Shown: positions 8,235-44,570, counted from the first letter of the stretch. The stretch: 64,000 bases of DNA from a virus (UHGV-1366990); one strand, 5' to 3'. Made by a program: numbers and translations. Notes: generated from the letters alone by a model not told the origin.

Positions 8235-8239
8235 GGAAA

Positions 8240-9184: not shown

Positions 9185-9186
9185 TC

Positions 9187-9882: not shown

Positions 9883-9884
9883 TT

Positions 9885-15564: not shown

Positions 15565-15570
15565 TAGTTT

Positions 15571-15598
15571 ACCCCGCTGAGGCGGGGTTTTAGTTTTC
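15571..15598. terminator. bidirectional terminator CCCCGC-TGAG-GCGGGG + T-run
   Basis: Between convergent genes 15208..15564 (+) and 15603..15878 (-). Confidence 0.65.
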
Positions 15599-15602
15599 CA
15601 GT

Positions 15603-15878
15603 TCATACCGGATAAGACCACACCCCCCCCCAGATACACCCCAACCCGGTTTCTATCGCCAGTATATCCTCTGTTTTACCTTCTACATTGTATCCAAGTT
15701 TAAGGAATTTCTCTTTCCTGAGTTTACTATCAACCCAAGATCGGCATTCAGTTTCGGTCGTCGGGTTGTTATCCAACAAACCCGGATTGCGTTTCATCGT
15801 CCCCAGCATGAATGATTTACATTCGTCACTACAATACAACGCAGCCTTCCTGGTTGGGTGAACGGTTTGTGACAGCAT
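15603..15878 (-). CDS. homing-endonuclease-derived small protein (nuclease core absent)
   Basis: N-terminal YCSDECKSF and C-terminal GYNVEGKTEDILAIETGLGCIW match the ends of the 490-aa endonuclease at 21901..23373 (FCSDACKTF / GYDVEGKTESQLATEAGLVRIW). Confidence 0.5.
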   Translation of the reverse strand: MLSQTVHPTRKAALYCSDECKSFMLGTMKRNPGLLDNNPTTETECRSWVDSKLRKEKFLKLGYNVEGKTEDILAIETGLGCIWGGVWSYPV

Positions 15879-15950
15879 GAACAATTTTTATCGGGGAATG
15901 GCATAATAAATATCCTCACTTTGGAGTATTTTAACCCCCATTTATTTCAA

Positions 15951-15960
15951 AACTAAATAT
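15951..15960 (+). promoter_or_regulatory. late-promoter-like motif AACTAAATAT
   Basis: 26 nt upstream of the tail tube ATG. Confidence 0.4.
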
Positions 15961-15985
15961 TTACACTATTCAGAGGAGAACGACC

Positions 15986-16519
15986 ATGGCTACAGTTAAT
16001 GAATTCAGAGCAGCTATGTCACGCGGGGGCGGCGTTCAGCGCCAACACCGTTGGCGTGTGACTGTTAACTTCCCTTCCTTCGTGGCTGGAAGCGATACTA
16101 TCCGTGATGTTTCGCTGTTGGCGGTGACCACAAATACCCCAACAGGCCAGCTCGGGGAAATACTCGTCCCATGGGGTGGTCGTGAACTTCCATTCCCAGG
16201 CGACCGTCGTTTCGAGGCTCTGCCTGTGACGTTCATCAACGTCGTGGACAACGCTCCGTACAACGCATTCGAAGTCTGGCAGCAGTATATCAACGGCAGC
16301 AACAACAACCGTGCGTCTGCTAACCCAGATGATTATTTCCGTGATGTAATCATGGAACTGCTGGATGCTAACGACAACGTCACCAAGACCTGGACCCTTC
16401 AGGGCACCTGGCCTCAGAACCTCGGTCAGCTGGAACTGGACATGTCTGCAATGGACTCTTATACTCAGTTCACTGTTGACCTGCGTTACTTCCAGGCCAT
16501 TTCAGACAAGTCTCTCTAA
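15986..16519 (+). CDS. tail tube protein (T4 gp19-like)
   Basis: C-terminus LQGTWPQNLGQLELDMS...QFTVDLRY resembles recalled T4 gp19 IKGLWPTNVGELQLDWD...TFEVTLALDY. Confidence 0.85.
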   Translation: MATVNEFRAAMSRGGGVQRQHRWRVTVNFPSFVAGSDTIRDVSLLAVTTNTPTGQLGEILVPWGGRELPFPGDRRFEALPVTFINVVDNAPYNAFEVWQQYINGSNNNRASANPDDYFRDVIMELLDANDNVTKTWTLQGTWPQNLGQLELDMSAMDSYTQFTVDLRYFQAISDKSL

Positions 16520-16543
16520 TGTCCTCAGTGCTGGGGGATCTTT

Positions 16544-16553
16544 ATTCCCCCTC
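16544..16553 (+). promoter_or_regulatory. late-promoter-like variant CACTAATTAC
   Basis: Preceded by hairpin GGGGGA-N7-TCCCCC; 33 nt upstream of the portal ATG. Confidence 0.35.
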
Positions 16554-16585
16554 ACTAATTACAAGAAAATGTTGAGGACTTAATC

Positions 16586-18280
16586 ATGGCATTCGGTAAT
16601 GGTGCATTCGGAAATGGGTTCTTCGGCTTGTTCGGCAGAGGCGGCAAAGTAGAAGCGCCGATTGATACCGACAAGATGGTCACGAACCAAGAAGAGAAGT
16701 TGCTTTCAAAAGCGACTGTTGTTGCGCTGGACGATTCTCAGGATGGTTCCATCATCCTCCAGGGCGGCGCGAACACATTCAATTTCGTTGGTGTTGAGAA
16801 TGAGTTGCTCAACGTCAAACAGCTGGTCGAAGAGTACCAGTCTATGGCTCAGCAGCCTGAGATTCGTAAGGCTGTGGATATCATTGTCAACGACATCGTC
16901 ACCTGTGAAGAGGAAGAGACTCCTGTAACCATCAACCTGGAAAAGGTGGATGGCGTCACAAACGAAGTCAAAGAGAAGATCACTGACGCATTCAAAGAGA
17001 TCATGCATCTCCTTGACTTTGACAACACGGCGTATCAGAAGATCCGCAAATGGTATATTGAAGGCCGTCAGGCATTCCACGTTGTGGTGGACCCGAAGAA
17101 CAAGAAAGCGGGTATCGCCAAACTCATCATGATGGACTCACGCTGTATCCGTCCTGTATACATCGTTCAAAAGGCGATGCGCGACGGTATCGAAGTCATC
17201 AATGACGTAAAACTTCAATACTACTACAACCCGAACTACAACCGCAACCAATTCACTGGCCAGTCCGGAACGTCTCAGAACTTCCAACCGTCACAGCAAG
17301 AGCTGGTGTTTGATGATGAGAGCATAGTGTATCTGGACAGTGGTGAAGAGCCTCTGGCGAATGGGGTTGTGCCAAGCCTGCTGAACCCAGCTATCCGTCC
17401 CCTGAACAACCTTGTTACAACTGAAGATGCAACGGTGATCTATGCGATCACACGTGCTCCTGAGAAGCGAGCGTTCTATCTCGACGTGGGTACGCTGGGT
17501 AAGAAGTCGGCCGAAGAATACATGCAAGCCATGATGGGCAAATTCAAGAACCGTCTGGCGTATGATCGCACCACTGGTAAGGTGGCTGGTAACACTCATT
17601 TGATGGGCATCGCTGAGGACTACTGGTTACCACGTCGCGAAGGGCAGAACGCAACCGAGATCTCCAACGTAGGCGGTGGCGATCAACTGGGTCAAATGGA
17701 TCATGTGGTATACTTCCGCGAGAAGCTCTACGAGGCTCTGATGATCCCTAAGAGCCGCCTGCAAGAGGAAGGTTCCATCAACATCGGTGGTTCCAATCTT
17801 GCTGAAATCACACAGGAAGAACTGCGCTTCAACAAGTTCTGTGCGAGCCTGCGCCGTCGTTATTCTTCTGGTATCTTCCTGGAACTTCTGCGCCGTCAAC
17901 TGATATTGAAAGGCATTACAGATCAGGCTGACTGGAATGAGAAGATCAAGCCGTTCGTCAAGTTCGAATTCACTTCTGACAGCTTCATCCGTGAACAACA
18001 AGAGAACGAAATCTTGTCACAGCGTATGGCGGCTCTCGGTCAGATCGAACCATATATCGGCACTCTCTTCTCTATCGATTTTGCTCAACGCAATTTGCTG
18101 CGTATGTCCGATGAAGACATCAAAGACCAGCAAGAGAAGATCGCGAAAGAGAAGAAAGAAGGCAAATACCCTGAAGTGCAGGCAGATGAGTCCGGCGGCT
18201 TCGGCAGCGGGGAAGTCAGTCCACTGAAATTCAGACCTAACGTCATCCCAGCGACTAACCCTCCTGGTGGTGAAGAATAA
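16586..18280 (+). CDS. portal protein (T4 gp20-like)
   Basis: 564 aa in the gp20 position between tube and prohead core genes; GAGGA Shine-Dalgarno. Confidence 0.8.
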   Translation: MAFGNGAFGNGFFGLFGRGGKVEAPIDTDKMVTNQEEKLLSKATVVALDDSQDGSIILQGGANTFNFVGVENELLNVKQLVEEYQSMAQQPEIRKAVDIIVNDIVTCEEEETPVTINLEKVDGVTNEVKEKITDAFKEIMHLLDFDNTAYQKIRKWYIEGRQAFHVVVDPKNKKAGIAKLIMMDSRCIRPVYIVQKAMRDGIEVINDVKLQYYYNPNYNRNQFTGQSGTSQNFQPSQQELVFDDESIVYLDSGEEPLANGVVPSLLNPAIRPLNNLVTTEDATVIYAITRAPEKRAFYLDVGTLGKKSAEEYMQAMMGKFKNRLAYDRTTGKVAGNTHLMGIAEDYWLPRREGQNATEISNVGGGDQLGQMDHVVYFREKLYEALMIPKSRLQEEGSINIGGSNLAEITQEELRFNKFCASLRRRYSSGIFLELLRRQLILKGITDQADWNEKIKPFVKFEFTSDSFIREQQENEILSQRMAALGQIEPYIGTLFSIDFAQRNLLRMSDEDIKDQQEKIAKEKKEGKYPEVQADESGGFGSGEVSPLKFRPNVIPATNPPGGEE

Positions 18281-32405: not shown

Positions 32406-33395
32406 ATGTCTAATATCACTATCGTTTCCGACCAGTACGCATGGGAAAACAAGTACCGCCCTGACAACCTGGACGAGATTATCATCCCTCAAGACGTCCG
32501 CGCTAAAATCCATGGCTACATCACCAGCGGTAACGGCAACATCCCGTCTATGCTGTTCTACTCCCCTCAGCCTGGTACTGGCAAGACTACCTCCGCCCTG
32601 GCCGTGTGTAATGAAATCGGTTGTAAGCAACCACTGATGATCAACGCATCCCTGGACAACAGCATCGACGTTATCCGTGACCGCGTGATTCAGTACTCTA
32701 CTGGTGTGAGCGTATTCGGTGGCCGCAAAGTCGTTATCCTCGACGAAGTAGAGCGTCTGTCTATGGCGGCACAGGAGTCGCTGAAGGGTATTGTGGAGAA
32801 GGTCTCCAAGAACTGTTCATTCATCCTGACCACCAACGCCAAGCAACGTGTGAACGAACCTCTGCGCTCTCGTTGCCGTGAAATCGACTTTATCTGGAAT
32901 GAGACCGAGGCTGATGAGGTCAAACTTCAGTTCATGCGCCGCTGTGCTGAAATCCTTCGCTGCGAAGGTGTTGAGTATGACCCTCCTGTGTTGGCTGCTA
33001 TTGTCAAGCGCCATTTCCCTGATAACCGCCGCATCATGGGTGTTCTACAGGATAACGTCACCACTTACGGCAAGATCGACGAACGTGCACTGGCTGTGTT
33101 AAAATCGGCCGATATGGGCATGTTGGTGAATATGTTGAAGGATAATGACTGGGCTGGGATGAAGCAGTGGGTGACCGACAACCAGAACTATATCACTGAA
33201 GACTTCTATTCCCGCTTCTTCCAGTTCTGTGTACCACAGGATAAAGAGAAGCAAATGTTGGTCCAGAATGAGTCTATCCCTGATCTGGTATGCGTGTGTG
33301 GTCAGTCTCAGATTGAACACCGTCAAGTCGGCGATGTCTGGCTGCATGCTGTGTTTTTCCTGACCAATGTCATGCTCAACATCAAGTGGAAGTGA
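32406..33395 (+). CDS. clamp loader large subunit (T4 gp44-like AAA+)
   Basis: ENKYRP, SPQPGTGKTT Walker A, ILDEVE Walker B, SRC motif; ATG at 32406 after GAGG. Confidence 0.9.
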   Translation: MSNITIVSDQYAWENKYRPDNLDEIIIPQDVRAKIHGYITSGNGNIPSMLFYSPQPGTGKTTSALAVCNEIGCKQPLMINASLDNSIDVIRDRVIQYSTGVSVFGGRKVVILDEVERLSMAAQESLKGIVEKVSKNCSFILTTNAKQRVNEPLRSRCREIDFIWNETEADEVKLQFMRRCAEILRCEGVEYDPPVLAAIVKRHFPDNRRIMGVLQDNVTTYGKIDERALAVLKSADMGMLVNMLKDNDWAGMKQWVTDNQNYITEDFYSRFFQFCVPQDKEKQMLVQNESIPDLVCVCGQSQIEHRQVGDVWLHAVFFLTNVMLNIKWK

Positions 33396-33399
33396 TATT

Positions 33400-33822
33400 A
33401 TGGCCGCCCTTGGATTGTTCGATTACCTGGCTGCTCTGAACAGCAGCAAAGAAAACCTTTTGCGGTCTGATGACCCAGAAGTGTTGAAAGGATTCGACCC
33501 GTTTATGACGCGGCGTGGTTTAGCTCAGAGCAAAGACACTCTAGTGGCTGCGCAACAGATGAATAAGCTACATGCTATCACTCCATGGATGCAATGGTCA
33601 TATGCCTTTTACACCATTCCGGCTCGGAAACGCTACGACAAATGGTCTAAGAAAGGTCCGATTGATCCTGACGTGAAGTTACTCTCCGAGTACTTCTACA
33701 TCAGCATGGAGAAGGCATCGGAGTACGTCCGTTTCTTGCCGAAGGAAGTCCTGGCCGAGATACGCGAGAAGATGAGACGTACTGAGCTGAACGCCAAAGC
33801 GAAACCGCGCAAGGCTAAGTAG
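33400..33822 (+). CDS. clamp loader small subunit (T4 gp62-like)
   Basis: IPARKRYDKWSK resembles recalled T4 gp62 VPRGKRYGKWAK; synteny. Confidence 0.7.
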   Translation: MAALGLFDYLAALNSSKENLLRSDDPEVLKGFDPFMTRRGLAQSKDTLVAAQQMNKLHAITPWMQWSYAFYTIPARKRYDKWSKKGPIDPDVKLLSEYFYISMEKASEYVRFLPKEVLAEIREKMRRTELNAKAKPRKAK

Positions 33823-33851
33823 TTCAAACTATTGTAAAAGGGGAATGAGTC

Positions 33852-34316
33852 ATGGCGCGTAATACGCTAGACATATTGAATATTTCAGCAGTCAACGATG
33901 AGGCCAGCATCGTTGATTGTATGGTTGAAGTTCAATTGAACCAAGATCGGCCAGGTATATTCCTGGGGATCAAGGAAACACTGAGTCGAATTGGGGTAAA
34001 CACGCGCCAAGAGCCGAATACTCTGTATCAGACTTGCCATATTCTTCATAAGTGTGGTAAGTATTATATCGTCCACTTTAAGCATCTATTTATGCTGGAC
34101 GGGCATTACAACGGATTTAACCGCGAAGATGTCCTGAGGATGAACCGAATCATCAAGCTGCTGGAGCAGTGGAACATGGTGAAGGTCATTCATCCTGAGC
34201 AGGTCACCGAAGCAGCCGATATGTCTCGCATTAAAGTGGTTAAACACGATCAGGTTCCTGAATGGAAGCTGGTTCCAAAATACATCATCCGGCCTACAAA
34301 GGCAAAAAGCGAATAA
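33852..34316 (+). CDS. regA: translational repressor RegA
   Basis: LYQTCHILHKCGKYYIVHFKHLFMLDG and EWKLVPKY match recalled T4 RegA; T4 gene order 45-44-62-regA is conserved. Confidence 0.85.
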   Translation: MARNTLDILNISAVNDEASIVDCMVEVQLNQDRPGIFLGIKETLSRIGVNTRQEPNTLYQTCHILHKCGKYYIVHFKHLFMLDGHYNGFNREDVLRMNRIIKLLEQWNMVKVIHPEQVTEAADMSRIKVVKHDQVPEWKLVPKYIIRPTKAKSE

Positions 34317-34332
34317 CTGGAGTCGCTATATT

Positions 34333-35205
34333 ATGACAACTACATTTTCTAAGAACGTGAATCTGAATCTGGCTTTCGGTAATGCAAAGGGCGACGTCAC
34401 ATCGCCCGACTTTGGTAAGATCCGCAATCAGGCGAAACTGGTGCTGGAAGAAACTCGTGAACTGCTAGAAGCGGCGTATTTCGACCACGAGGTGAAAATT
34501 GAGTTCACCGCATCTCCGCGAGTCCTGAAAGAACCCGTTGTTGTCGACATCAAAGACATTATGCGCCAGATCATGGATGCCCAGGGCGACATCACAACAG
34601 TCAACGACGGTTTGGCTCATATTGCTGGTTTCGACGGTGACGAATGCCTACAGCGCGTGTATGCGTCTAATATGAGCAAGTTCGTTCGCAATGAAGGTGA
34701 AGTTGTTCCAGCGCTGGAGTATTACTATAACAAAGGATTCCCACGCGAAAGTCTACGCATCGAAGGGGAATTCCCTCAGGCGTGCATCAAAGTGGTGGAC
34801 ACCATCACTGTCGACAGCAAAGAATACCCGGCTGGCAAGTTCCTGAAGAACATGGCAACCTTCAAAGAGCCTGACTTCTCTGATATGTTGACCACCGAGC
34901 CTAAGCGCCAGATCACCGAAATCATTCTGACGGGCACGGCTACCCCAGGTCGACTCGGATGCAACGAACATGCTGGTGTTGCCTACGCGCCGTTCGATTT
35001 TATTGACGAGATCGTGGGATACACCAAGATGGGTTTCCAGGCGTTCTCTGGCGAAACAGTCGAGAGCTACATTCCCGTGTTTGTTTTCAATGAAGACAAC
35101 TTCCCAACTCTACCGTTGATCTGGGGTGAATGGAAAGCCAACGTCCGTATCTATGTGGCCAGCCCAGTGCAATCATCTATCACCCAACTGACCCGTATCG
35201 ATTAA
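34333..35205 (+). CDS. MazG-like NTP pyrophosphohydrolase domain protein with extra C-terminal domain
   Basis: N-terminal LVLEETRELLEA resembles the all-alpha NTP-PPase EExxELLE motif; C-terminal 170 aa unassigned. Confidence 0.35.
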   Translation: MTTTFSKNVNLNLAFGNAKGDVTSPDFGKIRNQAKLVLEETRELLEAAYFDHEVKIEFTASPRVLKEPVVVDIKDIMRQIMDAQGDITTVNDGLAHIAGFDGDECLQRVYASNMSKFVRNEGEVVPALEYYYNKGFPRESLRIEGEFPQACIKVVDTITVDSKEYPAGKFLKNMATFKEPDFSDMLTTEPKRQITEIILTGTATPGRLGCNEHAGVAYAPFDFIDEIVGYTKMGFQAFSGETVESYIPVFVFNEDNFPTLPLIWGEWKANVRIYVASPVQSSITQLTRID

Positions 35206-35228
35206 GATATACAGTTATTCACTAAACA

Positions 35229-35256
35229 ACAGAGGCTATAATGGCCTCTGTTTTCG
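35229..35256 (+). terminator. hairpin AGAGGC-TATAATG-GCCTCT + TTTT
   Basis: 6-bp stem; the loop contains TATAAT. Confidence 0.5.
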
Positions 35257-35273
35257 TATTCTAAGAGGATACC

Positions 35274-36497
35274 ATGAAAGATAAACCATATGACATCCCA
35301 TATTGCGGTGTCCGTGAAACCAAAATCAAATCAGCCCATCCTATGTTAAGTTCATTCCACCGCCAGCTGGCATATGAATGGATGAGGGATCGTTATGCGA
35401 TACATGTCAAGAAGGACGTGCAATGCCTTCCAGCGCCATGGACGGATAATCCGGTATTACGCCAAGTCAAGTTTTGTAACGTGCGGAGAGAGCACGATAG
35501 ACAGTCTCGAAATTTGATCAATAATATCATCCTCAATCAGGATCTCACGCTATCTGACAAAATGTTCAACTGTGTATTGTTCCGCATGTACAACATGTGG
35601 GAACCTATACAGGCTTTGGGTGGTCCATGGACGATCGAAGAATTCGGAAACATAAATCTTGAATGGTGTCGAAATGTTCTTCAGGAATTCGAATCTAAAG
35701 GTGGCAAAGTTTTCACCAATGCGTTTAATACAGGCGGTCTGAAACAATGCCTGGCTTTCCCCGAACTAGTTGTCAACCACAAGGAGCATCACTTCGGTGG
35801 GATGATGGTGAATCTGATCTGTAAAGACGGTTCAATCCAGAACATGGATTACAAGGAAGCCAAGGCCATCGCTGAAGCAGAGCCGGACTTCTACACCATC
35901 GAAGGTTGGGAACCGTACATGCCAATGCGTGTCATCCGCTCCCTGAAGGCATTCGTCAACAAACACCCTCATTACTTTGATCGCCTCAGGGAATTTAGCC
36001 GTCCCGACTCTGTTTACCAGGCGATGTATGACGACATTGAGGGGCTTGGACCATTCTTGGCATACCAGATTTGGGTTGATTTTACATACATCGATGAATA
36101 TCCATTCAGTGAAAACCACTTCACTATCGCTGGTCCAGGTTGCCGTGCTGGTATCGATCTGTTATTTTTGGACAAGGACGGCATGACGCATGAAGAATGC
36201 ATATTCTGGGTTCGTGATCATCAAGATCAATTGTTCGCTCAGTATGGGTATAAACGTAATGAATTTTGGTCGGCAGAAGAACCGGAAGACCGTTGCATGA
36301 ATGTTATGCAGCTGGAGAACATGTTCTGTGAACTTCAGAAATATACCCGCTGCGTTGAGGCAGTGATGCGCGGGGAGAAACCTCGAGGAAAGGTGGGGTA
36401 TGACGGGAATGGCAGTGCGTATAAGCAACGTTGTGATGAAGTCGTGCTCAAACGTGGTTCCGTCAATTTGCTGGACCGTTTGAAGAAACCTGAATAA
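35274..36497 (+). CDS. hypothetical protein (407 aa), Trp/Cys-rich, function unknown
   Basis: AAGAGGA Shine-Dalgarno; no motif recognised by eye. Confidence 0.6.
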   Translation: MKDKPYDIPYCGVRETKIKSAHPMLSSFHRQLAYEWMRDRYAIHVKKDVQCLPAPWTDNPVLRQVKFCNVRREHDRQSRNLINNIILNQDLTLSDKMFNCVLFRMYNMWEPIQALGGPWTIEEFGNINLEWCRNVLQEFESKGGKVFTNAFNTGGLKQCLAFPELVVNHKEHHFGGMMVNLICKDGSIQNMDYKEAKAIAEAEPDFYTIEGWEPYMPMRVIRSLKAFVNKHPHYFDRLREFSRPDSVYQAMYDDIEGLGPFLAYQIWVDFTYIDEYPFSENHFTIAGPGCRAGIDLLFLDKDGMTHEECIFWVRDHQDQLFAQYGYKRNEFWSAEEPEDRCMNVMQLENMFCELQKYTRCVEAVMRGEKPRGKVGYDGNGSAYKQRCDEVVLKRGSVNLLDRLKKPE

Positions 36498-36612
36498 AGA
36501 TTCCCTTTACTTCGTTCTTCAATAACTCTTTTCAACGTATTATTGACCTCACTTAAACGAAGCGCCCTGGCAAACGGGGCGCACATTTGAACTGAAACAG
36601 GAAGACTACACC

Positions 36613-38631
36613 ATGTCAGAATTTAAGCCCTTCGCAGTAGCTGTTAACAACAACGTGCTGGCTATGTCAGCATCTGGTCTGTTCATGACCAACATCGATA
36701 AAGATGCTCTGTGGGATCTGTATCTGTCTTCTTTCCCTGCTGGTACCAACCCGCTCTACCGTGAGCGTACCGAGCACGACTGCACCTGCTGTAAACAATT
36801 CATCCGTAACATCGGCGGTGTGGTCACCATCGACGCCGACCTGAACGTGATCTCTATCTGGGATAACATTCAGCTGGGTAACGAATACGACGTTGTCGCT
36901 GCGGCGCTGTCAGCGTATGTTAAGCAGCACGCAATCGTCGACGTGTACTTCAACGACACCAAGAAAGTTGGTGTTGAGTCGAATCACGAAATGAAAGACG
37001 GTATTGTCCGCACCTACAACCACTTCCACACCGACCTGCTGGGCAGCTATGTTCTGCGGGCAGATACCATCGCTTCTAAGAAGGGTGAAATCCGCCAGGC
37101 GATTGAAGTGTTTGAGCGCGGCCTGCGTGAACTGTCTCTGGAATCGGCTGAAATCGTTCTGGAATTGATTGACCAGAATTCTCTGTATCGCGGTGAAGAG
37201 CACAAAGCGGCAGTGCAGGCGTTCGTGGTGAACAAGACCCTGTACGAACAAACTGCAGAAGAGAAACGCGCTCTGTGGGCTTGGCGCACTGGCTACCGTG
37301 CAAACGGTCATACCCCTCACGGCATTCGTAATACCGTGATTGGCTCTCTGCTGGTAGACCTCAATGAAGGCCGGGATCTGGAAACCGCCGTGAAGTCCTT
37401 TGAAGCCAAAGTCGCTCCGACGAACTACAAGCGCCCAACCGCGCTGGTCACGAAGTCCATGATTGAAAACGCGCAGAAAGAAGTCGAAGCGCTGGGCCTG
37501 ACCGATTCACTGGGTCGCCGTTATGCCGTGTATGACGATCTGACCATCAACAATGTTCTGTTCGCCGATCTGGCAGCTCAGAAGAAGATGGACCCGTTTG
37601 CTCAGCTGGCGTCTGAAGTGAAGACTCCGACCAAGTCCCTGGACAAGGTTGAAGAGATCACGATCGACGACTTCCTGACCAACGTGTTGCCAAAGGCGCA
37701 TTCCCTGGAAGTACTGGTTGAAAACTCTCACATTGGCAACCTGATGTCCCTGATCGCTCCGGCTACCGCAGGCGCTCCTAACCTGTTCAAGTGGAACAAC
37801 GGCTTCAGCTGGTCGTACAATGGCGAAGTGGCCGACTCCATCAAAGAGCGCGTGAAGACCGCAGGCGGTAATGTCGACAGTTTCCTCCGTGTGTCACTGG
37901 CTTGGCATAACAACGACGACCTGGATCTGAGCATGAACGATCCTCTTCACAACCACGTGTATTATCACAACCGTCGTTCGACAACTGGCGCAACTCTGGA
38001 CATCGACATGAACGGTATGGACGGCATTGATCCAAACCGCCGTCCGGTGGAGAACATCTTCTTCAGCGATGAACGCAAGCTGCGTGATGGTCTGTACGAG
38101 TTCTATGTCACTAACTTCAGCCAGCGTGAAACCTGTGATATGGGCTTCGAAATCGAAGTTGAATACAAAGGCCAGACCAAGCGTTTTTCGCATCCTGGCC
38201 TGAAGCACAAAGATCGCACTCTGGCTGTTGTGATTGATGTCCGCGCTGGACAAGTGGTAGACATCCGTTCTACCCTGAAAGACGACGCTCGCTCTCAGGA
38301 AATCTGGGGCATCAAGACCTCCGTCTTCCAGAAGGTACAGCTGGTTCTGAACTCACCAAACCATTGGGACGGCGAGCAGACTGGCAACAAGCACGTGTTC
38401 TTCATCCTGGAAGGTTGTGCTAACCCTGTCGGCACCCGTGGTTTCTATAACGAATATCTGAAGCCGGAACTTGATAAACACCGCAAGGTTTTTGAAATGT
38501 TAGGCGGTAAGATTAAAGTACAGCCAAGCACTGAGCAGCTGTCCGGTCTGGGCTTCTCTACCACCCAACGCAACCACGTGTTCGTGAAGGTGAGCGGTTC
38601 GTTCAACCGCACTGTGAAAGTTGTGTTCTAA
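36613..38631 (+). CDS. hypothetical protein (672 aa), function unknown
   Basis: CAGGAAG Shine-Dalgarno; upstream TTTACTTC...TTCAATAA cassette-like element; no P-loop seen. Confidence 0.7.
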   Translation: MSEFKPFAVAVNNNVLAMSASGLFMTNIDKDALWDLYLSSFPAGTNPLYRERTEHDCTCCKQFIRNIGGVVTIDADLNVISIWDNIQLGNEYDVVAAALSAYVKQHAIVDVYFNDTKKVGVESNHEMKDGIVRTYNHFHTDLLGSYVLRADTIASKKGEIRQAIEVFERGLRELSLESAEIVLELIDQNSLYRGEEHKAAVQAFVVNKTLYEQTAEEKRALWAWRTGYRANGHTPHGIRNTVIGSLLVDLNEGRDLETAVKSFEAKVAPTNYKRPTALVTKSMIENAQKEVEALGLTDSLGRRYAVYDDLTINNVLFADLAAQKKMDPFAQLASEVKTPTKSLDKVEEITIDDFLTNVLPKAHSLEVLVENSHIGNLMSLIAPATAGAPNLFKWNNGFSWSYNGEVADSIKERVKTAGGNVDSFLRVSLAWHNNDDLDLSMNDPLHNHVYYHNRRSTTGATLDIDMNGMDGIDPNRRPVENIFFSDERKLRDGLYEFYVTNFSQRETCDMGFEIEVEYKGQTKRFSHPGLKHKDRTLAVVIDVRAGQVVDIRSTLKDDARSQEIWGIKTSVFQKVQLVLNSPNHWDGEQTGNKHVFFILEGCANPVGTRGFYNEYLKPELDKHRKVFEMLGGKIKVQPSTEQLSGLGFSTTQRNHVFVKVSGSFNRTVKVVF

Positions 38632-38675
38632 ACCTGATTTGAAATTGTAACCCATTCATCATTGAGGATAGTAAA

Positions 38676-39047
38676 ATGTTTGATAAAGCAACCCGTATGA
38701 AACTGCGCTTCGAGTCTAACAAAGGCCTGTTGTCTGTTGAGCAGGTCTGGGACCTGAGCCTGACTGCCCTGAACGAAATGGCGAAAGGTCTGAGCCGTCA
38801 GGTGAAAGCAGCAGAAACCGATGAAGAAGATTTCATTGGTACCAAAAGCAACGTTGACTCCGAACTGCAGCTGCGCTTCGACGTTGTCAAGCACATCATC
38901 GGCGTTAAGCTGAAAGAACGTGACGACAGCAGAGAAGCGGCAGAGCGTAAGGCGAACAACCAGGTTATCCTGGAGCTGATCCAACGTAAGAAACAGCAAG
39001 AGCTGGAAAGCAAATCTGTTGAAGAACTGGAAGCGCTGCTGAAATAA
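38676..39047 (+). CDS. hypothetical coiled-coil protein (123 aa)
   Basis: GAGGA Shine-Dalgarno; followed by a strong terminator. Confidence 0.55.
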   Translation: MFDKATRMKLRFESNKGLLSVEQVWDLSLTALNEMAKGLSRQVKAAETDEEDFIGTKSNVDSELQLRFDVVKHIIGVKLKERDDSREAAERKANNQVILELIQRKKQQELESKSVEELEALLK

Positions 39048-39069
39048 CCCTGTTGGCCTCGGCCTGAGC

Positions 39070-39097
39070 AACCCCGCCATGTGCGGGGTTTCTTTTT
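39070..39097 (+). terminator. rho-independent terminator CCCCGC-CATGT-GCGGGG-TTTCTTTTT
   Basis: GC stem plus U-tract. Confidence 0.7.
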
Positions 39098-39108
39098 GGA
39101 CAAAGAAT

Positions 39109-39510
39109 ATGAAACTTGTCATCTGTGATTACTGCGGCCTCCTAGCCGAATTCGTCGGTGGTGATGTTCTCTACCCTCATCGCCCTGACCTCCGCAATCT
39201 GAAGTTCTGGGTGTGCACTCCATGTGATGCCCGTGTCGGTTGCCATGCCCATGGCGACGGCAGACAACCTTTGGGAAGGATGGCGAATGCCGCTCTCCGT
39301 GCTGCTAAGCAGGAAGCCCATAGATCGTTTGACCCATTGTGGAAAAGCGGAGAGAGGAGCAGGAGCGACGCTTACAGTTGGCTGGCGCATGAGCTGGGGA
39401 TAAAGAAGCGTGAGTGTCATATTGGCTTGTTCGATATCGACATGTGCCGTAAAGTAGTTGCTGTATGCAACCAATTACGGGAAACACAGAATGGCAACCA
39501 TCAATCGTAA
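39109..39510 (+). CDS. zinc-ribbon protein (DUF3268-like)
   Basis: CDYCG...CTPCDARVGCHAHG cysteine pattern; ATG is residue 11 of ORF 39079. Confidence 0.5.
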   Translation: MKLVICDYCGLLAEFVGGDVLYPHRPDLRNLKFWVCTPCDARVGCHAHGDGRQPLGRMANAALRAAKQEAHRSFDPLWKSGERSRSDAYSWLAHELGIKKRECHIGLFDIDMCRKVVAVCNQLRETQNGNHQS

Positions 39511-40285
39511 TGAACCCCAAGGTGTTGAGCTGAAGGGTAAATCTGTTCGCGAAGGTCTAAGGCTATCTCCAGATCTTCTGAAGTCACACATTGCCGAAGT
39601 CATCTATGAAGACCGTGAAGTCGGCGGCCACCGCGTCATCACCTGCCACTTCAAGATGGACAACGGCTTTGTCGTGTGGGGTAAGAGTAGCTCTACTTCC
39701 ATCGACCCTGCCAACTTTGATGAAGAGTTGGGCAAGAAGCTGGCCTATGACAAGACCTTCTCCCAGTTGTGGGAACTGGAAGCCTACCGCGCCGTTGTGG
39801 AGAAGCAGATGTTGGAGGTGGCTACCGCCGATGCGAAGATAGACATCTTCCAGTACATCTCCGAAAGGGGGAAGATAAATCATATGGCTGGGATGGAATT
39901 CTTACAAGGCCACGGTCAGTCTTTCGTGTTCCGACATCCACGAGACCCAAGTCGCGGATTCGGTGCTGAATTTATTCAGACTGACAACGAACGCCACAAC
40001 GAACAATTCAATGGTAAATCCCGAGAGAAGGTTGAAGCCTATCTGCGTTCGTTCATGCGCCCGGATGAATTGTATTCTGAACTCGTTGTTCGTCTGGCCA
40101 AGACTTGCATGGCGGCCTACAAGGGTGGGATCTACTTTAATGCCACCTCTTGGGATAAGATGAGCGCCGAAGAACAGAAAGACTGCTGTGATGACGTCAG
40201 GCGGCTCTTGCTGGCTCCGACGGATTATACCCCAACCGACCAGAAGGATGCGCTGTTCAAGGCCATCGTTGATTCTTACAAATAA
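39491..40285 (+). CDS. hypothetical protein with Gp49-like N-terminal domain
   Basis: ITCHFKMDNGFVVWGKSS...DPANFDEELGKKLAY resembles the phage Gp49/Sf6-gp66 family; from memory. Confidence 0.45.
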   Translation: MATINRNEPQGVELKGKSVREGLRLSPDLLKSHIAEVIYEDREVGGHRVITCHFKMDNGFVVWGKSSSTSIDPANFDEELGKKLAYDKTFSQLWELEAYRAVVEKQMLEVATADAKIDIFQYISERGKINHMAGMEFLQGHGQSFVFRHPRDPSRGFGAEFIQTDNERHNEQFNGKSREKVEAYLRSFMRPDELYSELVVRLAKTCMAAYKGGIYFNATSWDKMSAEEQKDCCDDVRRLLLAPTDYTPTDQKDALFKAIVDSYK

Positions 40286-40358
40286 CTGAATTATCAAAGT
40301 CCTTCAATAACAATAACGCCCAGTATATTTGCTGGGCGTTTCAATTTGTACATCACAG

Positions 40359-40364
40359 TATAAT
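40359..40364 (+). promoter_or_regulatory. -10 TATAAT downstream of terminator hairpin ACGCCCAG-N8-CTGGGCGT
   Basis: Perfect -10 hexamer 32 nt before ATG 40396; no good -35. Confidence 0.3.
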
Positions 40365-40395
40365 ACGGCTGTACAATACACCATGAGGTTACATT

Positions 40396-40629
40396 ATGTT
40401 TCGTTTGAAATTGAACGACCAAGATGTGTTCTACAAACACTTCACCTTCCCAGGTGGTGAGGAACATATCAAGATTCAAAAATCTGGTATCCCTATCGGC
40501 CATGTTCAGAACGTGGTGATTGATGCTCACATCAAATCATCAGACGTTCAGAAGCGGTTGGCTCTATCCAGCGCCTGTGGGAGATCTTTGAAACTGGGCA
40601 CTTCCTGTTGGATGAGCACATCGGCCTGA
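40396..40629 (+). CDS. hypothetical small protein, possibly frameshifted
   Basis: The first 50 aa are protein-like, the tail is junk-like; the alternative frame gives SIQRLWEIFETGHFLLDEHIGLIYGDSITPPGA ending in a C7 tract. Confidence 0.3.
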   Translation: MFRLKLNDQDVFYKHFTFPGGEEHIKIQKSGIPIGHVQNVVIDAHIKSSDVQKRLALSSACGRSLKLGTSCWMSTSA

Positions 40630-40714
40630 TCTACGGTGATTCTATCACCCCCCCTGGCGCGTGAAGACCGCTATTAAATCCCAACAGGGCGTCGTCTCTG
40701 TTAAGTGAGATCAA

Positions 40715-40930
40715 ATGATACTGAAAGAATGTTTTACCGACCTGAAGGCGACGTCTGAAAGTATTCCGGCTTGCATTCAGAACTATGCTCCAAAGGATGT
40801 GCTCTTGGCTCAGCTGGAGCAGTCTCGTGAGTTTATCAACAATATGCTGGACTCTGTAAAGACGCGCATCGAAGCCGCTGATGAGTCTGAACTTAACCCT
40901 TACGCACAAGGCGAAGAGAACAATGATTGA
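40715..40930 (+). CDS. hypothetical acidic protein (71 aa)
   Basis: ATG ORF; stop overlaps the next start (ATGA). Confidence 0.35.
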   Translation: MILKECFTDLKATSESIPACIQNYAPKDVLLAQLEQSREFINNMLDSVKTRIEAADESELNPYAQGEENND

Positions 40931-43124
40931 ATCATTAGAATTTAAGAATGCGGTTGCGACTGCTGCCCCGTCCAACCATGTAATCGTTGTAGACATTTCC
41001 GGCTCTATGTACCGTGCGCTCCCTGAAGTCCGTAAGCATCTGAAGGAGAACCTGCCTTCCCTGGTGAAACCGGAAGACACTGTGAGTGTTCTATACTTCT
41101 CATCCAAAGGCGACTTTGGCACTGTGTTCGCTGGCCGTCAGATCAATGCAGCATCCGACCTGAGCGAAATCAACAATCTGATTGACCGTTTCCTGCAACC
41201 ATCCGGCTGTACTGGTTTCGTTGAGCCATTGAAACTGGCGATGGACACTGCTCGTGGCCTGAAGAAGCCTGGCTATGTCAACAACCTGGCGTTCATGACT
41301 GACGGGTATGACAACTGCTGGCGTACCAACGAAATTCTACTGGTTGCTGAGACCCTGCCATTTGCTTTTGATAACATTACATTTATCGAATATGGCTGGT
41401 ACTGTAACCGCGAACTGCTGGCGCAGATGGCCGAACGCTCTGGTGCTACTCACGTGTTTGCCGAAGGTCAGACCGAATACCAGACCGAGCTGGAAAACGT
41501 GCTGAAGTCATCAGTGCCGAAGGTGAAAGTTGATGTCCCAGTCATCTACACCCATGCCATCTACGTCGAAAACGGTGTGGCAACAGTACTGGCGGTGCAG
41601 GACGATGACTCTCACCCGGTCGGCTATGTGAGCATCCCTGAGAGCGTCACCAAGCTGTGGGTTGTAAACCCTAACATGATCGACCAGCTTGATGCGCTGG
41701 CGGATATCCAGGCGGCATACGTGCTGGCGTTCTACGGCGTACACATCATGGACGCGGACCTGGTGTGGGCTGCACTGAAGAAAACAGGTGACGTTCGCTT
41801 CATCAAACAGTACAGCAACTGCTTCACCAAGCAGGACTACTCCAACATCAAGAACGATCTGGTTCAGGCGATTGTTGAAGACCAGCTGCGCGGCGTTGAC
41901 GGTATTGACTATGACCTGGTTCCGGCTGAAGATGCGACCACCGTCGTTGATGTGCTGACGTACCTGGCTGAAGCTGGTGTGCCTGTTGCTACCAAGCATC
42001 CGATGTTCTCCTATAAGAGTATCGGGCGCGGTACTGTGCAGAAAACCGACGACACCGAAGACAAGCTGGCAGAACAGATCGCGAATGCTCAGTCCAAAGA
42101 AGAGCGTAAAGCCCTGGCTCTCAAGCTGGCAGAGCACGAAGAGTGGAACCCGACGTTCGAACCTACCAACGACCTGGGTGTTGTGCCAATCAGTGATTTG
42201 GTCTATAACTTCGAGCGCCCGAACATCAGTGTGCGTACAATTCAACACGGTACTGTGGCTGTGCCTGAATTCGCACAGAAGAAGTTTGGCCTGCCTGAAG
42301 AACTGGACACTTTCCAGTGGCGCAACTACACCATCGTCAAAGACGGTATCATCAACGTGAAGACTCTGCCGTTCAAGGCTGATATCGAAGTTGTACAGAA
42401 GCTGATCGAAATGGGCGTCCACGTGTTTGGTGGTCCGGAAGTGTTTGTCCTGAACCTGGAAAGCGTACCGCTGGTCAACCGCGCCATGGTCAAGAACATC
42501 AGTGCTGCTCAGTTCTTTGCGGATAATGTCCGTCTGGAAGCCCTGAAAGGTAAGCAGAAGGTGCTGAAGTTCTATCGAGACGCCCTGGTTGGTAAGGGTA
42601 ACGCCAAAGGCCTGGCAGTACAGTACGGCGCTGAGGCGGCCGAGTTCCTGTCCTCCTACGGCATCCGCGATTACGGCTTCTCACCGAAGACTGAGACCAA
42701 AGAGTCTACCGACTTCTACATGAGCCGTGAGCTGAACGTGAAGATCGCCGGGGCGTCTTCACTACCGAGCATCGCGGCAGTACAGAAGAAGATCGCAGAG
42801 AACAAGAAACTCAATGCTGGTGACTTGTTCATCGCCAATGCTCTGAAAGAGTACGAAGCATTCGTGAAGTCTCCTATGATCACTGCCGTGCCTGAAGCCT
42901 TACAGAAACAGCTGATCGAAAACTGGATCGACGCTGCTGCCAAGGCGGCCATCACCGAAGTCCGTGCCCTGAACAAGACGCTGTCTAAAGTGGTGTATGG
43001 TATCGTTGCTGGTCATGGCTGGTTCACCGACCTCGACCTGGAAGAGTCCACCATGGAAGTTGAAGTGGATGGCGTGAAGTACAAGGTCACTGCCGAACTG
43101 ACAGAGAAAGAAATCAAAATCTAA
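40923..43124 (+). CDS. von Willebrand factor A (vWA) domain protein (733 aa)
   Basis: MIDAS-like VIVVDISGSM ... MTDGYDN near the N-terminus; the C-terminal 500 aa are unassigned. Confidence 0.7.
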   Translation: MIESLEFKNAVATAAPSNHVIVVDISGSMYRALPEVRKHLKENLPSLVKPEDTVSVLYFSSKGDFGTVFAGRQINAASDLSEINNLIDRFLQPSGCTGFVEPLKLAMDTARGLKKPGYVNNLAFMTDGYDNCWRTNEILLVAETLPFAFDNITFIEYGWYCNRELLAQMAERSGATHVFAEGQTEYQTELENVLKSSVPKVKVDVPVIYTHAIYVENGVATVLAVQDDDSHPVGYVSIPESVTKLWVVNPNMIDQLDALADIQAAYVLAFYGVHIMDADLVWAALKKTGDVRFIKQYSNCFTKQDYSNIKNDLVQAIVEDQLRGVDGIDYDLVPAEDATTVVDVLTYLAEAGVPVATKHPMFSYKSIGRGTVQKTDDTEDKLAEQIANAQSKEERKALALKLAEHEEWNPTFEPTNDLGVVPISDLVYNFERPNISVRTIQHGTVAVPEFAQKKFGLPEELDTFQWRNYTIVKDGIINVKTLPFKADIEVVQKLIEMGVHVFGGPEVFVLNLESVPLVNRAMVKNISAAQFFADNVRLEALKGKQKVLKFYRDALVGKGNAKGLAVQYGAEAAEFLSSYGIRDYGFSPKTETKESTDFYMSRELNVKIAGASSLPSIAAVQKKIAENKKLNAGDLFIANALKEYEAFVKSPMITAVPEALQKQLIENWIDAAAKAAITEVRALNKTLSKVVYGIVAGHGWFTDLDLEESTMEVEVDGVKYKVTAELTEKEIKI

Positions 43125-43128
43125 TCCA

Positions 43129-43155
43129 ACGGGCGGGGCAACCCGCCTTTCTTTG
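43129..43155 (+). terminator. rho-independent terminator GGCGGG-GCAA-CCCGCC-TTTCTTT
   Basis: GC stem plus U-tract after the vWA gene. Confidence 0.65.
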
Positions 43156-43166
43156 GGAGAAGTAGC

Positions 43167-43490
43167 ATGAGCAGTAAACCAACATATGTTGAAGTCATGC
43201 GTCATCTGGCTCAGTACGCCACCGACAATCTGAATATGGATCTGTGGCGTGACGATGACAAGCGCAAATTGCTGGACGACGTGGCATCTCAGAACGAGGA
43301 CGCCCTGGACAAGCTGGCTGGCCTCCGTACCAAGAAAGACCTCGGCGGTGATGAACTGGACGCTATCGAAATCGTAATGGACCTCGAAGAAGAGTTTCAG
43401 GTCGAAATCGACGACGGCTGGCTGGGTAGTAAAGGCGATGACCCGACCATGGGTGAACTCGCTGAACTCGTGGTTGCCCTGCGCAAATAA
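43167..43490 (+). CDS. acyl-carrier-protein-like protein with DSL to DEL substitution
   Basis: DLGGDELDAIEIVMDLEEEFQVEIDD aligns with E. coli ACP [26 protein letters not shown], but the Ser is Glu. Confidence 0.65.
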   Translation: MSSKPTYVEVMRHLAQYATDNLNMDLWRDDDKRKLLDDVASQNEDALDKLAGLRTKKDLGGDELDAIEIVMDLEEEFQVEIDDGWLGSKGDDPTMGELAELVVALRK

Positions 43491-43493
43491 CAG

Positions 43494-43522
43494 AAGTCCC
43501 CAACAAACGTTGGGGATTTTTA
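43494..43522 (+). terminator. terminator TCCCCAAC-AAAC-GTTGGGGA-TTTTT
   Basis: 8-bp stem plus U-tract. Confidence 0.65.
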
Positions 43523-43532
43523 CTTTTAGGGG

Positions 43533-43561
43533 TTTACTTCCTCTAAGGAATGTCCTATTAT
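43533..43561 (+). promoter_or_regulatory. sigma70-like early promoter (TTTACT-17 nt-TATTAT)
   Basis: Same TTTACTTC -35 context as the other cassettes; followed by TTCAATAA. Confidence 0.45.
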
Positions 43562-43612
43562 TCAATAACTGGCGAACGATGGGTTCACCGGGTTGAAAGG
43601 TAAGATTATATC

Positions 43613-43852
43613 ATGAAGAACAAAATGGTCGAAACTTCAGTAGAGATTGATCGCAATTGGGGATTGCTCCGCGCTAAAGGGTTCCGCCGTGTGTATGCGA
43701 CCAAAGAAGTCTACGCACAGCGTCGTGACGTTATCATCAGCAAGAAAGGCAAAGAGTGGGTTGCTGAAGAAGTTGATGTCGAGACAGGCATCGTAGGAAA
43801 GGTAAAGGCCAAGGCCGCGATCCTCTTCGCTCTTCTGAAGCACATCAGTTAA
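43613..43852 (+). CDS. hypothetical basic protein (79 aa)
   Basis: ATG in the conserved AGGTAAGATTATATCATG start region. Confidence 0.5.
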   Translation: MKNKMVETSVEIDRNWGLLRAKGFRRVYATKEVYAQRRDVIISKKGKEWVAEEVDVETGIVGKVKAKAAILFALLKHIS

Positions 43853-43911
43853 TTCTATAACTTTGGGCGGGGTATGATTACCCCGTCTATTTGAAACCAA
43901 GAGACTATATC

Positions 43912-44286
43912 ATGAAAAAGTTAATCCTCGCTGTTGCCCTGCTGGGCGCTTCCTTTGCTGCTGTTTCCGCCCCTCCTGTCATCACCGGAGTGTCTACCAA
44001 CGGTGTTTATGCTTTCAAGGCGTATGGCCAAGACCTCGTTCTGTATAAGAACGGGAAGATGATTGAGCGCTGCGTATCAGACGACGTGAATCGTGGGATC
44101 GACAATCAGGGTAGCCCATACGTCCTGGACATCTATTCCTGCTCCAACGGGACGAAGTCCTTTGGCGTCAAGACCTTTGGCAACGTCGCCGACGGTGGCT
44201 GGGGCTTCATGTTCGAAACCCGCAACCACCACCCGGTCAAGACCATGCAAGAAGAGTTCTTGATCTCTGTCGGGGGTACGTTATGA
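43912..44286 (+). CDS. exported protein with signal peptide (124 aa)
   Basis: MKKLILAVALLGASFAAVSA-PP: signal peptide with AxA site; conserved start region. Confidence 0.6.
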   Translation: MKKLILAVALLGASFAAVSAPPVITGVSTNGVYAFKAYGQDLVLYKNGKMIERCVSDDVNRGIDNQGSPYVLDIYSCSNGTKSFGVKTFGNVADGGWGFMFETRNHHPVKTMQEEFLISVGGTL

Positions 44287-44570
44287 CACCATCAGAGAGA
44301 AGTTCTATCAAGGAGATGATCAGAGACAAGGCGTGTGTTGGCCATACTCAGTCAGAGAACATCTTGCGCCTGATGGTAATAAAGAACGATATCGACAACA
44401 GCCGATTCCAAACAGCGTTGTATGGCATGCTGGAGTTTATATCGCGGTCATCTGATCTTGGCACGGTCCGATATCTTGACGATCTGACCAAGCTGCTGAA
44501 CACGGGCGGGGAAACTTTCGACGCCGCTCGTATCCTGATTGACGGTGGACCTGAAGAAGACGAGGTATAA
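44283..44570 (+). CDS. hypothetical protein (95 aa)
   Basis: ATGA overlap with the upstream gene. Confidence 0.5.
   Translation: MTPSERSSIKEMIRDKACVGHTQSENILRLMVIKNDIDNSRFQTALYGMLEFISRSSDLGTVRYLDDLTKLLNTGGETFDAARILIDGGPEEDEV

Follow-up and report, generated by a model that had tools for sequence, protein, structure and literature searches.

Probable separately terminated modules in an accessory gene block of an Ackermannviridae phage, among them a widespread two-gene cassette encoding a DUF8224 protein and a small partner

In a 64-kb stretch of DNA from the virus UHGV-1366990 (here termed the window), a block of about 8.8 kb (positions 34333-43124), in which all open reading frames (ORFs) lie on the plus strand, directly follows genes gp45, gp44, gp62 and regA. 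A first-pass annotation considered this block, said to hold large unassigned proteins of 407, 672 and 733 amino acids (aa), as the most likely place in the window for an undescribed host-takeover, anti-defence or DNA-modification function. As such, the question is whether the block comprises a single unexplored system or rather several unrelated ones, and what its genes encode. The analysis presented here identifies the window as coming from an Ackermannviridae (Vi1-like) phage. The block is probably a conserved accessory stretch that follows gp45-gp44-gp62-regA in Vi1-like phages, comprising five or six separately terminated transcription units that hold functionally independent modules, not one system. 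One of these modules, namely, the 672-aa DUF8224 protein together with a 123-aa partner, is a mobile, very widespread and conserved two-gene phage cassette, and represents a new result.

When the block was used as query in a megablast search, 275 phage records were matched, all but two of which carry enterobacterial host names (Salmonella, Klebsiella, Escherichia, Dickeya, Shigella and Serratia). Those matching records that were inspected (P46FS4, ViI, fGh-Ecl02 and phiMAM1) all correspond to Ackermannviridae, and the gene order of the block is common to the four. Overall, the closest relative of the block is found in Agtrevirus P46FS4 (90% nucleotide identity), with single genes sharing 97-99% identity with their counterparts in Escherichia phages A221 and YX22 and in Enterobacter phage fGh-Ecl02. 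The ORFs first listed were all recovered on the plus strand, at or near the positions originally assigned to them, and the view of the block as accessory and lying outside the T4 core was borne out. No gene of the block presented homology to structural or replication proteins. The genes are as follows.

34333..35205, plus strand: predicted MazG-like all-alpha NTP pyrophosphohydrolase, 290 aa (phrog_2144, phrog_671)
35274..36497, plus strand: HMUDK_hel / aGPT-Pplase clade-1 protein, 407 aa (PF18723; ViI gp160 ortholog)
36613..38631, plus strand: DUF8224 protein, 672 aa (PF26675)
38676..39047, plus strand: 123-aa DUF8224 partner (phrog_2018)
39109..39510, plus strand: DUF3268 zinc-finger protein, 133 aa (PF11672)
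39491..40285, plus strand: Gp49/Sf6-gp66-like N-terminal domain protein, 264 aa (PF13876)
40396..40629, plus strand: 77-aa Prs/Nampt operon remnant ORF (phrog_12872, phrog_619)
40715..40930, plus strand: 71-aa ORF overlapping the vWA start (P46FS4 ORF52 equivalent)
40923..43124, plus strand: vWA-MIDAS protein, 733 aa (PF00092)
43167..43490, plus strand: acyl carrier protein (ACP)-like protein, 107 aa, just beyond the block (PF00550, PF14573, phrog_4154)

Division of the block into transcription units was considered next. As a generic terminator scan yielded no excess of sites (10 sites versus the 9.4 expected from shuffled sequence), terminators were assessed by position and folding energy (kcal/mol, z-score). 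Six stable intergenic hairpins (-15.8 to -18.8 kcal/mol, z -2.4 to -6.3) were found, located between the MazG-like and 407-aa genes, between the 407- and 672-aa genes, between the 123-aa and DUF3268 genes, between the Gp49-like gene and the remnant ORF, between the vWA and ACP-like genes, and 3' of the ACP-like gene. The five that lie upstream of the ACP-like gene are as follows.

35228..35252, plus strand: intrinsic-terminator-like hairpin between the MazG-like and 407-aa genes (11-bp stem, T-rich tail; -15.8 kcal/mol, z -6.2)
36562..36582, plus strand: hairpin between the 407-aa and DUF8224 genes, with a weak T tract (-17.6 kcal/mol, z -4.3)
39070..39090, plus strand: strong intrinsic terminator after the DUF8224 and partner unit (8-bp GC-rich stem, then TCTTTTT; -17.7 kcal/mol)
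40315..40340, no strand assigned: hairpin 3' of the Gp49-like gene (-18.8 kcal/mol, z -6.3 on the plus strand)
43131..43148, plus strand: intrinsic terminator 3' of the vWA gene (-17.6 kcal/mol)

No hairpin was detected in the 45-nucleotide (nt) gap between the 672- and 123-aa genes (-2.9 kcal/mol, z +1.0). Given this, together with the hairpins on both sides, these two genes appear to form one unit. The earlier claim that each unit is bounded by terminators thus stands for the six intergenic hairpins and fails for this gap, as well as for regA and the MazG-like gene, which are only 16 nt apart. Nor did the early-type promoter elements proposed at the same time survive scrutiny, with sigma-70-like sites being no more numerous than in shuffled sequence (12 versus 9.6 +/- 2.8) and being mostly intragenic. 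Judging from predicted folding, the transcription-unit picture nonetheless seems largely right. An Rfam scan of positions 33000-44500 revealed no RNA family, and a literature search found no Ackermannviridae transcriptome.

To determine which of these genes travel together, 80 IMG/VR loci containing DUF8224 (17 from Ackermannviridae and 63 from elsewhere, representing 45 DUF8224 clusters at 70% identity) were surveyed. The MazG-like, HMUDK_hel, vWA, Gp49-like and ACP-like genes are found with DUF8224 in the 17 loci from Ackermannviridae and in no others of this set. Because the genes of the block do not co-occur outside this family, the modules would seem to be independent and held together by descent within Ackermannviridae, such that the notion of the block as one unexplored unit is not upheld. 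On the other hand, a homolog of the 123-aa partner is present in 77 of the 80 loci, always on the same strand as DUF8224 (77/77) and in 75 instances downstream of it, with the gap between the two genes having a median length of 33 nt and not exceeding 100 nt in 63 cases. Moreover, the pairwise identities of DUF8224 and of the partner are correlated (r=0.88). Hence, whereas it was first stated that no multi-gene system could be defined, one such pair is now evident. The pairing is also seen in CR3, phiCbK, Bacillus phage PBC6, DSS3_VP1, phiMAM1 and a Bradyrhizobium-associated contig, in the last of which the partner shares 34% identity (E=6e-19); carriers thus include phages of Bacillus, Caulobacter, Roseobacter and enteric bacteria. 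The partner family includes at least 3,257 homologs, all lacking a Pfam domain, with the 123-aa protein itself presenting a motif conserved at its N-terminus, after which comes a C-terminal half rich in Lys and Glu. In the 63 non-Ackermannviridae loci, no other neighboring family was found in more than 10, with DNA ligase, polymerase and primase being those that recur. A 712-aa neighbor of DUF8224 in the Bradyrhizobium-associated contig was considered as a possible vWA protein and rejected, being instead a HATPase_c-domain protein.

Assignment of the 672-aa protein to DUF8224 relies on precomputed annotation of the identical sequence (P0001) and of all close homologs. The family is large, with more than 5,300 matches in a word-indexed search, and with 3,139 clusters at 50% identity matching the N-terminal 410 aa, its carriers being phages of both Proteobacteria and Firmicutes. 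Among the best 150 of 1.84 billion representatives, most are about 650-700 aa long and some are shorter, probably being partial; within these 150, no informative domain fusion was seen, nor any protein much longer than about 700 aa. Beyond Ackermannviridae, DUF8224 proteins sharing 40-52% identity are found in Vequintavirinae-like phages, Caulobacter phage phiCbK, Bacillus Bastillevirinae, Naomviridae, approximately 75-kb Xanthomonas, Stenotrophomonas and Vibrio phages, and Cellulophaga phages. Given such spread over many other phage groups, DUF8224 is not tied to thymidine hypermodification. At the same time, DUF8224 is encoded by two separate ORFs in ViI (Vi01_128c/129c; 15300-17319 of locus L002) and in Sajous1 (gp179/gp180), and is cut to its N-terminus, with the 123-aa partner missing, in Dickeya Limestonevirus-type phages (Coodle, XF4) and in locus L097. 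Since DUF8224 is fragmented, truncated or partnerless in these relatives, the cassette is evidently dispensable. PHROGs holds separate families for the DUF8224 fragments. Relatives of some 550 aa that share only the N-terminal approximately 400 aa of DUF8224 are also known, namely, gp09 of Xp12 (L171 3839-5488), which lies between ribonucleotide reductase and polynucleotide kinase/ligase genes, and gp182 of Serratia phage 2050HW (L172 3854-5512). These two short forms contain no TerD-like part and no Pfam domain, and the genes downstream of them are not partner homologs.

As to what the DUF8224 protein might do, three regions can be distinguished, namely, a conserved N-terminal part of about 400 aa, a TerD-like beta-sandwich at residues ~420-555 (nt ~37870-38277) and a C-terminal beta-rich domain. 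The 672- and 123-aa proteins gave no match in Pfam, NCBIfam and PADLOC scans and the former had no sequence match in the PDB, while among 41 DUF8224 homologs scanned at E<=1 no family recurred consistently, DUF2135 being seen a single time, at 0.095. A literature search found no paper mentioning DUF8224. As first observed, the protein has no recognizable ATPase motif, with no Walker A sequence being present. In terms of fold, the middle domain does correspond to the TerD beta-sandwich, as in Klebsiella TerD (2kxt) and Streptomyces SCO6318 (2qz7), and DUF8224 proteins hold an invariant Asp/Asn/Glu cluster that would suit a putative Ca2+ site, with the invariant DDLD, LDxDxN and VEN residues falling within this domain. 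In contrast to those proteins, with which it shares 9-18% identity, the domain forms part of a larger phage protein of 672 aa and several domains, in which the first 400 residues match nothing solved; the 123-aa partner, for its part, is not known from ter operons. In ChubbyThor, LPST94 and Sajous1, the same gene is labeled 'putative DNA-directed RNA polymerase' on the basis of low-confidence Phyre2 matches; this label, like the large size, strong conservation and phage-wide spread of the family, speaks for a non-canonical enzyme of this type. Still, given that the 672-aa protein lacks Pfam, NCBIfam and PDB sequence matches, that no DxDGD-type motif is found among the invariant DUF8224 residues, and that neither a polymerase fold nor a polymerase catalytic motif was detected in the protein, such an identity is highly improbable. 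Tentatively, and with a low probability attached, DUF8224 and its ~125-aa partner can be proposed to correspond to an unrecognized widespread module in which a Ca2+-binding TerD-like domain and a 400-aa catalytic core would serve a new host-takeover or counter-defence role. Because DUF8224 occasionally adjoins Prs, Macro or Nampt genes, this role could possibly involve NAD+/ADP-ribose metabolism or the Ter/TerY-type stress-defence systems of the host.

Of the large proteins in the block, that of 407 aa proved not to be unassigned. It matches Pfam family PF18723 (HMUDK_hel, '5-hmdU DNA kinase, helical domain', where 5-hmdU is 5-hydroxymethyldeoxyuridine) with E=1.6e-83 and a score of 280.7 bits against a cut-off of 25, in an alignment spanning positions 5-278 of the 281-position model. 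This family was formerly named aGPT-Pplase clade 1 (Iyer 2013; Lee 2018, PMC5889632; Lee 2021, PMC8989533). In Salmonella phage ViI, the counterpart is Vi01_130c (orf00160, YP_004327501), likewise of 407 aa and sharing 79% identity over 407/407 aa; it occupies the same position as in the window, after regA and the MazG-like gene. The 'gp' numbers used by Lee et al. are orf numbers, given that the accessions of gp226, gp243 and gp247 correspond to orf00226, orf00243 and orf00247. This numbering, together with identity and synteny, leads to the assignment of the 407-aa protein as the ortholog of ViI gp160. In agreement, ViI gp160 also matches HMUDK_hel in a Pfam scan, where ViI gp247 matches ADDT. 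The two orthologs share their Pfam match and their place in the genome and, judging from database records, probably also an occurrence in genomes that encode the AADT (gp247) family, with no structural difference between them. ViI gp160 is listed as aG/PT-PPlase1 in Table 3 of Lee 2018 (PMC5889632), where Bacillus phage SP10 gp186 appears as a fusion of kinase and PPlase1, and belongs to the set of five ViI proteins with which 5-(2-aminoethoxy)methyl-deoxyuridine (5-NeOmdU) was first rebuilt in mixed lysates (Lee 2018, PMC5889632). In that pathway, gp247 is the serine:DNA transferase and gp226 is the pyridoxal phosphate (PLP)-dependent decarboxylase (PMC8989533). By its sequence, then, the 407-aa protein is an already described member of the published thymine-hypermodification gene set. 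Accordingly, the supposition that the block harbors an undescribed DNA-modification function was right as to DNA modification and wrong as to 'undescribed', and the thymidine-hypermodification families against which the large proteins were to be compared do include this one. Its description as Trp/Cys-rich also holds (W 2.2%, C 3.2%).

Compact putative clusters for thymidine hypermodification offer further context. In the unclassified 157-kb Vibrio phage D509 (L010 11148-19341), an HMUD2 kinase, ADDT, two small ORFs, HMUDK_hel, two ORFs (232 and 305 aa), a thymidylate-synthase-like gene, a dNMP kinase and a dUTPase_2 gene are found together, and D509-like clusters occur in about 62 Vibrio phage records. 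Sorted by host name, the numbers of records with gp160-like and gp247-like proteins are the same for Salmonella (164/164), Vibrio (62/62) and Klebsiella (45/45). The D509 cluster and these near-identical distributions tie the gp160 family to the hypermodification pathway, and the window phage is probably, on the strength of its gene content, a thymidine-hypermodifying phage of the 5-NeOmdU type. Other pathway genes (5-hmdU DNA kinases, AADT, PLP decarboxylase and dUMP hydroxymethylase) were not found within the 64-kb window; in ViI, the remaining pathway genes lie 50-60 kb from gp160. No similarity between gp160 and gp247 that would point to paralogy was detectable by BLASTP, nor did PDB searches with the 407-aa protein, either as a single sequence or as a profile, return anything significant.

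Just upstream, the 290-aa protein matches phrog_2144 ('MazG-like') with E=6.1e-132 and phrog_671 with E=1.4e-20 over residues 2-193. Residues 1-189, predicted to comprise the catalytic core, align with the entire 191-aa MAM_082 protein of phiMAM1 (50% identity), while residues ~190-290 correspond to a lineage-specific C-terminal extension of some 100 aa, in line with its original description as a MazG-like protein with an extra domain. The ortholog in ViI is Vi01_131c. Likeness to phage MazG and dimeric-dUTPase all-alpha NTP pyrophosphohydrolases comes from the PHROG family annotation; like the dUTPase_2 gene in the D509 cluster, the gene adjoins nucleotide or DNA-modification genes. In contrast to those enzymes, the protein gave no Pfam match, and it bears the C-terminal domain of some 100 aa that phiMAM1 lacks; NCBIfam and PDB sequence searches also returned no match.

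At the other end of the block, the vWA gene can be read as an ORF of 747 aa beginning at 40881 or of 733 aa beginning at 40923, in both cases ending at 43124. Homologs start at Met15 (40923) and cover 98% of the 747-aa ORF. As was originally recognized, the N-terminus of the 733-aa protein is a vWA/MIDAS domain, scoring 28.4 bits against PF00092 (VWA; gathering score 23.8) and presenting a complete MIDAS; across 45 homologs, D24, S26 and S28 (DISGS), T97 and D127 are either invariant or conserved to 90% or more. The Rossmann-like vWA fold is present, with the vWA domain (residues ~1-200) being followed by a beta-sandwich (~200-250) and then by about 440-480 residues of alpha/beta domains. PDB searches by single sequence and by profile found nothing significant. 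The same vWA domain with complete MIDAS followed by a beta-sandwich is seen in Catenulispora 4fx5, in archaeal ArnB (8s05, 5a8j; Sec23/24-like core) and in inter-alpha-inhibitor heavy chains (6fpy), to which the 733-aa protein is only 12-16% identical and from which it differs in having further C-terminal residues lacking an assigned fold. Moreover, the gene was found to have neither an ArnA-like FHA/zinc-finger partner nor a MoxR-type ATPase or a kinase/phosphatase (TerY-P) as neighbor. Homologs are encoded by Ackermannviridae, by the T4-like phages RB43, RB16, KP15 and GAP161, and by Shewanella, Pseudomonas, Rhizobium and Bacillus PBS1 phages, with 55 non-Ackermannviridae vWA loci presenting no shared neighbor beyond lineage-specific synteny. 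The stop of the 71-aa ORF and the start of the vWA gene overlap (ATGATTGA), as is also the case in P46FS4, which hints at coupled translation. This small ORF shares 96% identity with its P46FS4 ORF52 equivalent and is poorly conserved elsewhere, with the positional analogue in RB43 being ORF120c. An ACP-like gene follows vWA only in Ackermannviridae (18 loci) and is lacking from the other vWA loci. The ACP-like protein matches a phosphopantetheine-attachment site; no acyl- or phosphopantetheinyl transferase-type partner was seen nearby.

Could the large proteins instead be part of the virion or be injected, with the vWA protein being adhesin-like or ejected and DUF8224 being internal? In CsCl-purified Sajous1 virions, the split DUF8224 proteins gp179 and gp180 are represented by 3 and 1 spectra, respectively, and the vWA protein gp185 by 1 spectrum. 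In addition, vWA domains are common in pilus-tip adhesins and one record labels the vWA gene as 'tail protein' or 'minor tail protein'. These spectra are, however, at the level of contaminants, with clamp loader and thymidylate synthase also yielding 1 and structural proteins reaching hundreds. The genes, moreover, sit among replication genes, far from the structural module, and the neighbors of the cassette in other phages are DNA ligase, polymerase and primase. A virion role is, as such, very unlikely.

Between the Gp49-like and vWA genes lies a variable slot. In P46FS4 (ORF50, prs; ORF51, nampt) and several relatives, this position holds an overlapping prs-like/nampt-like operon. Relative to P46FS4, the window carries two deletions (L001 12208-14034 and 14178-14622) that remove most of ORF50 and ORF51, such that no intact adjacent prs-like and nampt-like genes are found in the window. 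What remains is a fused 77-aa ORF, the matches of which to phrog_12872 and phrog_619 involve N-terminal residues only, with remnant homology extending over ~40200-40669. In ViI, the operon is wholly absent. Being present in P46FS4, a remnant in the window and absent from ViI, the content of the slot has been gained and lost among close relatives. Two-gene phage operons of prs-like and nampt-like genes encode the NARP1 NAD+ reconstitution pathway, comprising Adps and Namat (Osterman et al. 2024, bioRxiv 10.1101/2024.02.11.579819). The operon of the relatives has the same two-gene architecture and so appears, by annotation and architecture, to be of the NARP1 type. The anti-defence function originally suspected in the block is, by this analogy, plausible at the slot in relatives that carry the operon; in the window phage, the operon is destroyed. 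A PADLOC scan detected no defence-system match for any gene of the block.

Several observations run counter to the picture of independent modules. A distant 138-kb contig (IMGVR_UViG_3300036546_000172, positions 1-12000; L160) repeats the Ackermannviridae order DUF8224-partner-Prs-Macro-Nampt-...-vWA at 35-48% identity, with the ADP-ribose-binding Macro domain being an addition; DSS3_VP1 has DUF8224-partner-Nampt, and in locus L086, Prs/Nampt genes lie 8 kb upstream. Likewise, some assignments made above have points against them. The MazG-like label comes from PHROG annotation only; the protein has no Pfam or PDB match and does not detectably resemble the dUTPase_2 protein of D509. The TerD likeness is one of fold, with 18% identity and no Pfam TerD match at E<=1 in 41 family members; given that no match is seen at the sequence level, the domain is best called TerD-like in fold and not a TerD family member. 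Finally, although the gp160 family is predicted to be pyrophosphorylase- or glycosylase-like, 5-NeOmdU was rebuilt without gp160 from purified kinase, gp247 and gp226 (Lee 2021, PMC8989533); as gp160 is dispensable in vitro, its place in the pathway is a putative one. In full, the L160 region comprises genes for a DnaB-like helicase, DUF8224, the partner, Prs-like, Macro and Nampt-like proteins, small ORFs, a vWA homolog, a 149-aa ORF and an RNA ligase.

On account of L160, DSS3_VP1 and L086, which point weakly to a link between the cassette and NAD/ADP-ribose genes, a functional tie between the DUF8224 pair, the variable slot and the vWA gene is conceivable. In its fullest form, this would mean that the whole block, or DUF8224, its partner, Prs/Nampt and the vWA protein, constitute one system, a phage counterpart of the Ter-type clusters of bacteria, and that this system might make or sense a nucleotide-like metabolite or counter NAD+-depleting or Ter/TerY-P defences. 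TerD, vWA (TerY/TerF) and phosphoribosyltransferases were reportedly found to be associated in bacterial ter loci by Anantharaman, Iyer and Aravind in 2012, and a TerD-like fold and a vWA domain are both found in the block, the order of which is kept in every Ackermannviridae genus sampled. Yet of the 63 non-Ackermannviridae DUF8224 loci, none contains vWA and a single one has Prs/Nampt genes less than 10 kb away, while DUF8224 is found in just 1 of the 55 non-Ackermannviridae vWA loci (L160). Furthermore, strong terminators separate the units, many Ackermannviridae, including that of the window, lack Prs/Nampt and still keep the remaining genes, and PADLOC, with TerY-P models included, returned no match. 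A single Ter-like or NAD-linked system is, therefore, considered unlikely and is retained as a minority alternative to independent modules. Taken in this light, what the first-pass annotation observed was largely right, whereas its interpretation finds partial support: the spirit of it was correct for one gene, albeit one already described, and the treatment of the block as one unexplored unit was mistaken.

The remaining small genes agree with their initial description as encoding zinc-ribbon and Gp49-like-domain proteins. The 133-aa protein matches DUF3268 (PF11672; E=2.4e-36), with the phrog_1934 match beginning at residue 9 of the longer ORF. Because the mechanical start at 39079 falls inside the terminator hairpin, 39109 is the most likely start. 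The Gp49-like protein matches PF13876 (E=4.6e-12) and phrog_4435 (3.9e-116); its most likely start is the ATG at 39491, since its length then matches that of P46FS4 ORF49.

The ancestry of the block appears to be mosaic. The 407-aa gene is nearest to Kuttervirus-type counterparts (94% identity in PhiSH19 and 99% in fGh-Ecl02, versus 80% in Agtrevirus Ag3 and MK-13), while the DUF8224 and vWA genes share 97% and 94% identity, respectively, with those of Agtrevirus P46FS4. Such differing nearest relatives suggest intergenus recombination inside the block. Homing endonuclease genes are annotated within the block in Marshall, PM10, GG32, SS9, Maynard and PP35, which suggests that the block tolerates insertions; none is annotated in the window.

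From these data, we infer a set of proposed roles for the independent modules, namely, kinase accessory, pool editing, a metal-dependent counter-defence pair and MIDAS-mediated protein capture. The MazG-like enzyme and the gp160 ortholog could be accessory to the non-canonical thymidine pathway of the phage. Here, the former, judging by its context, would trim competing canonical dTTP/dUTP, while the latter, helical and glycosylase-like, may bind 5-hmdU DNA and assist or target the 5-hmdU DNA kinase. DUF8224 and its partner may act in the cytoplasm as an enzyme and its adaptor, binding metal (Ca2+) and having an accessory role in host takeover or counter-defence, and the DUF3268 and Gp49-like genes could comprise one module of small proteins in the mosaic. 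The solitary vWA protein would most likely use its metal site to grip an acidic residue on a protein of the host or of the phage.

For the biology of these phages, ViI gp160 stands out within the ViI gene set as the sole member with a role still to be settled, which marks a real gap in that pathway. The gain and loss of counter-defence genes in the slot among close relatives would bear on the host range of therapeutic Ackermannviridae. Lastly, DUF8224 is among the larger function-less phage families, and its near-constant partner in the same predicted transcription unit, its TerD-like domain and its dispensability make of it a concrete, testable unit for functional screens.

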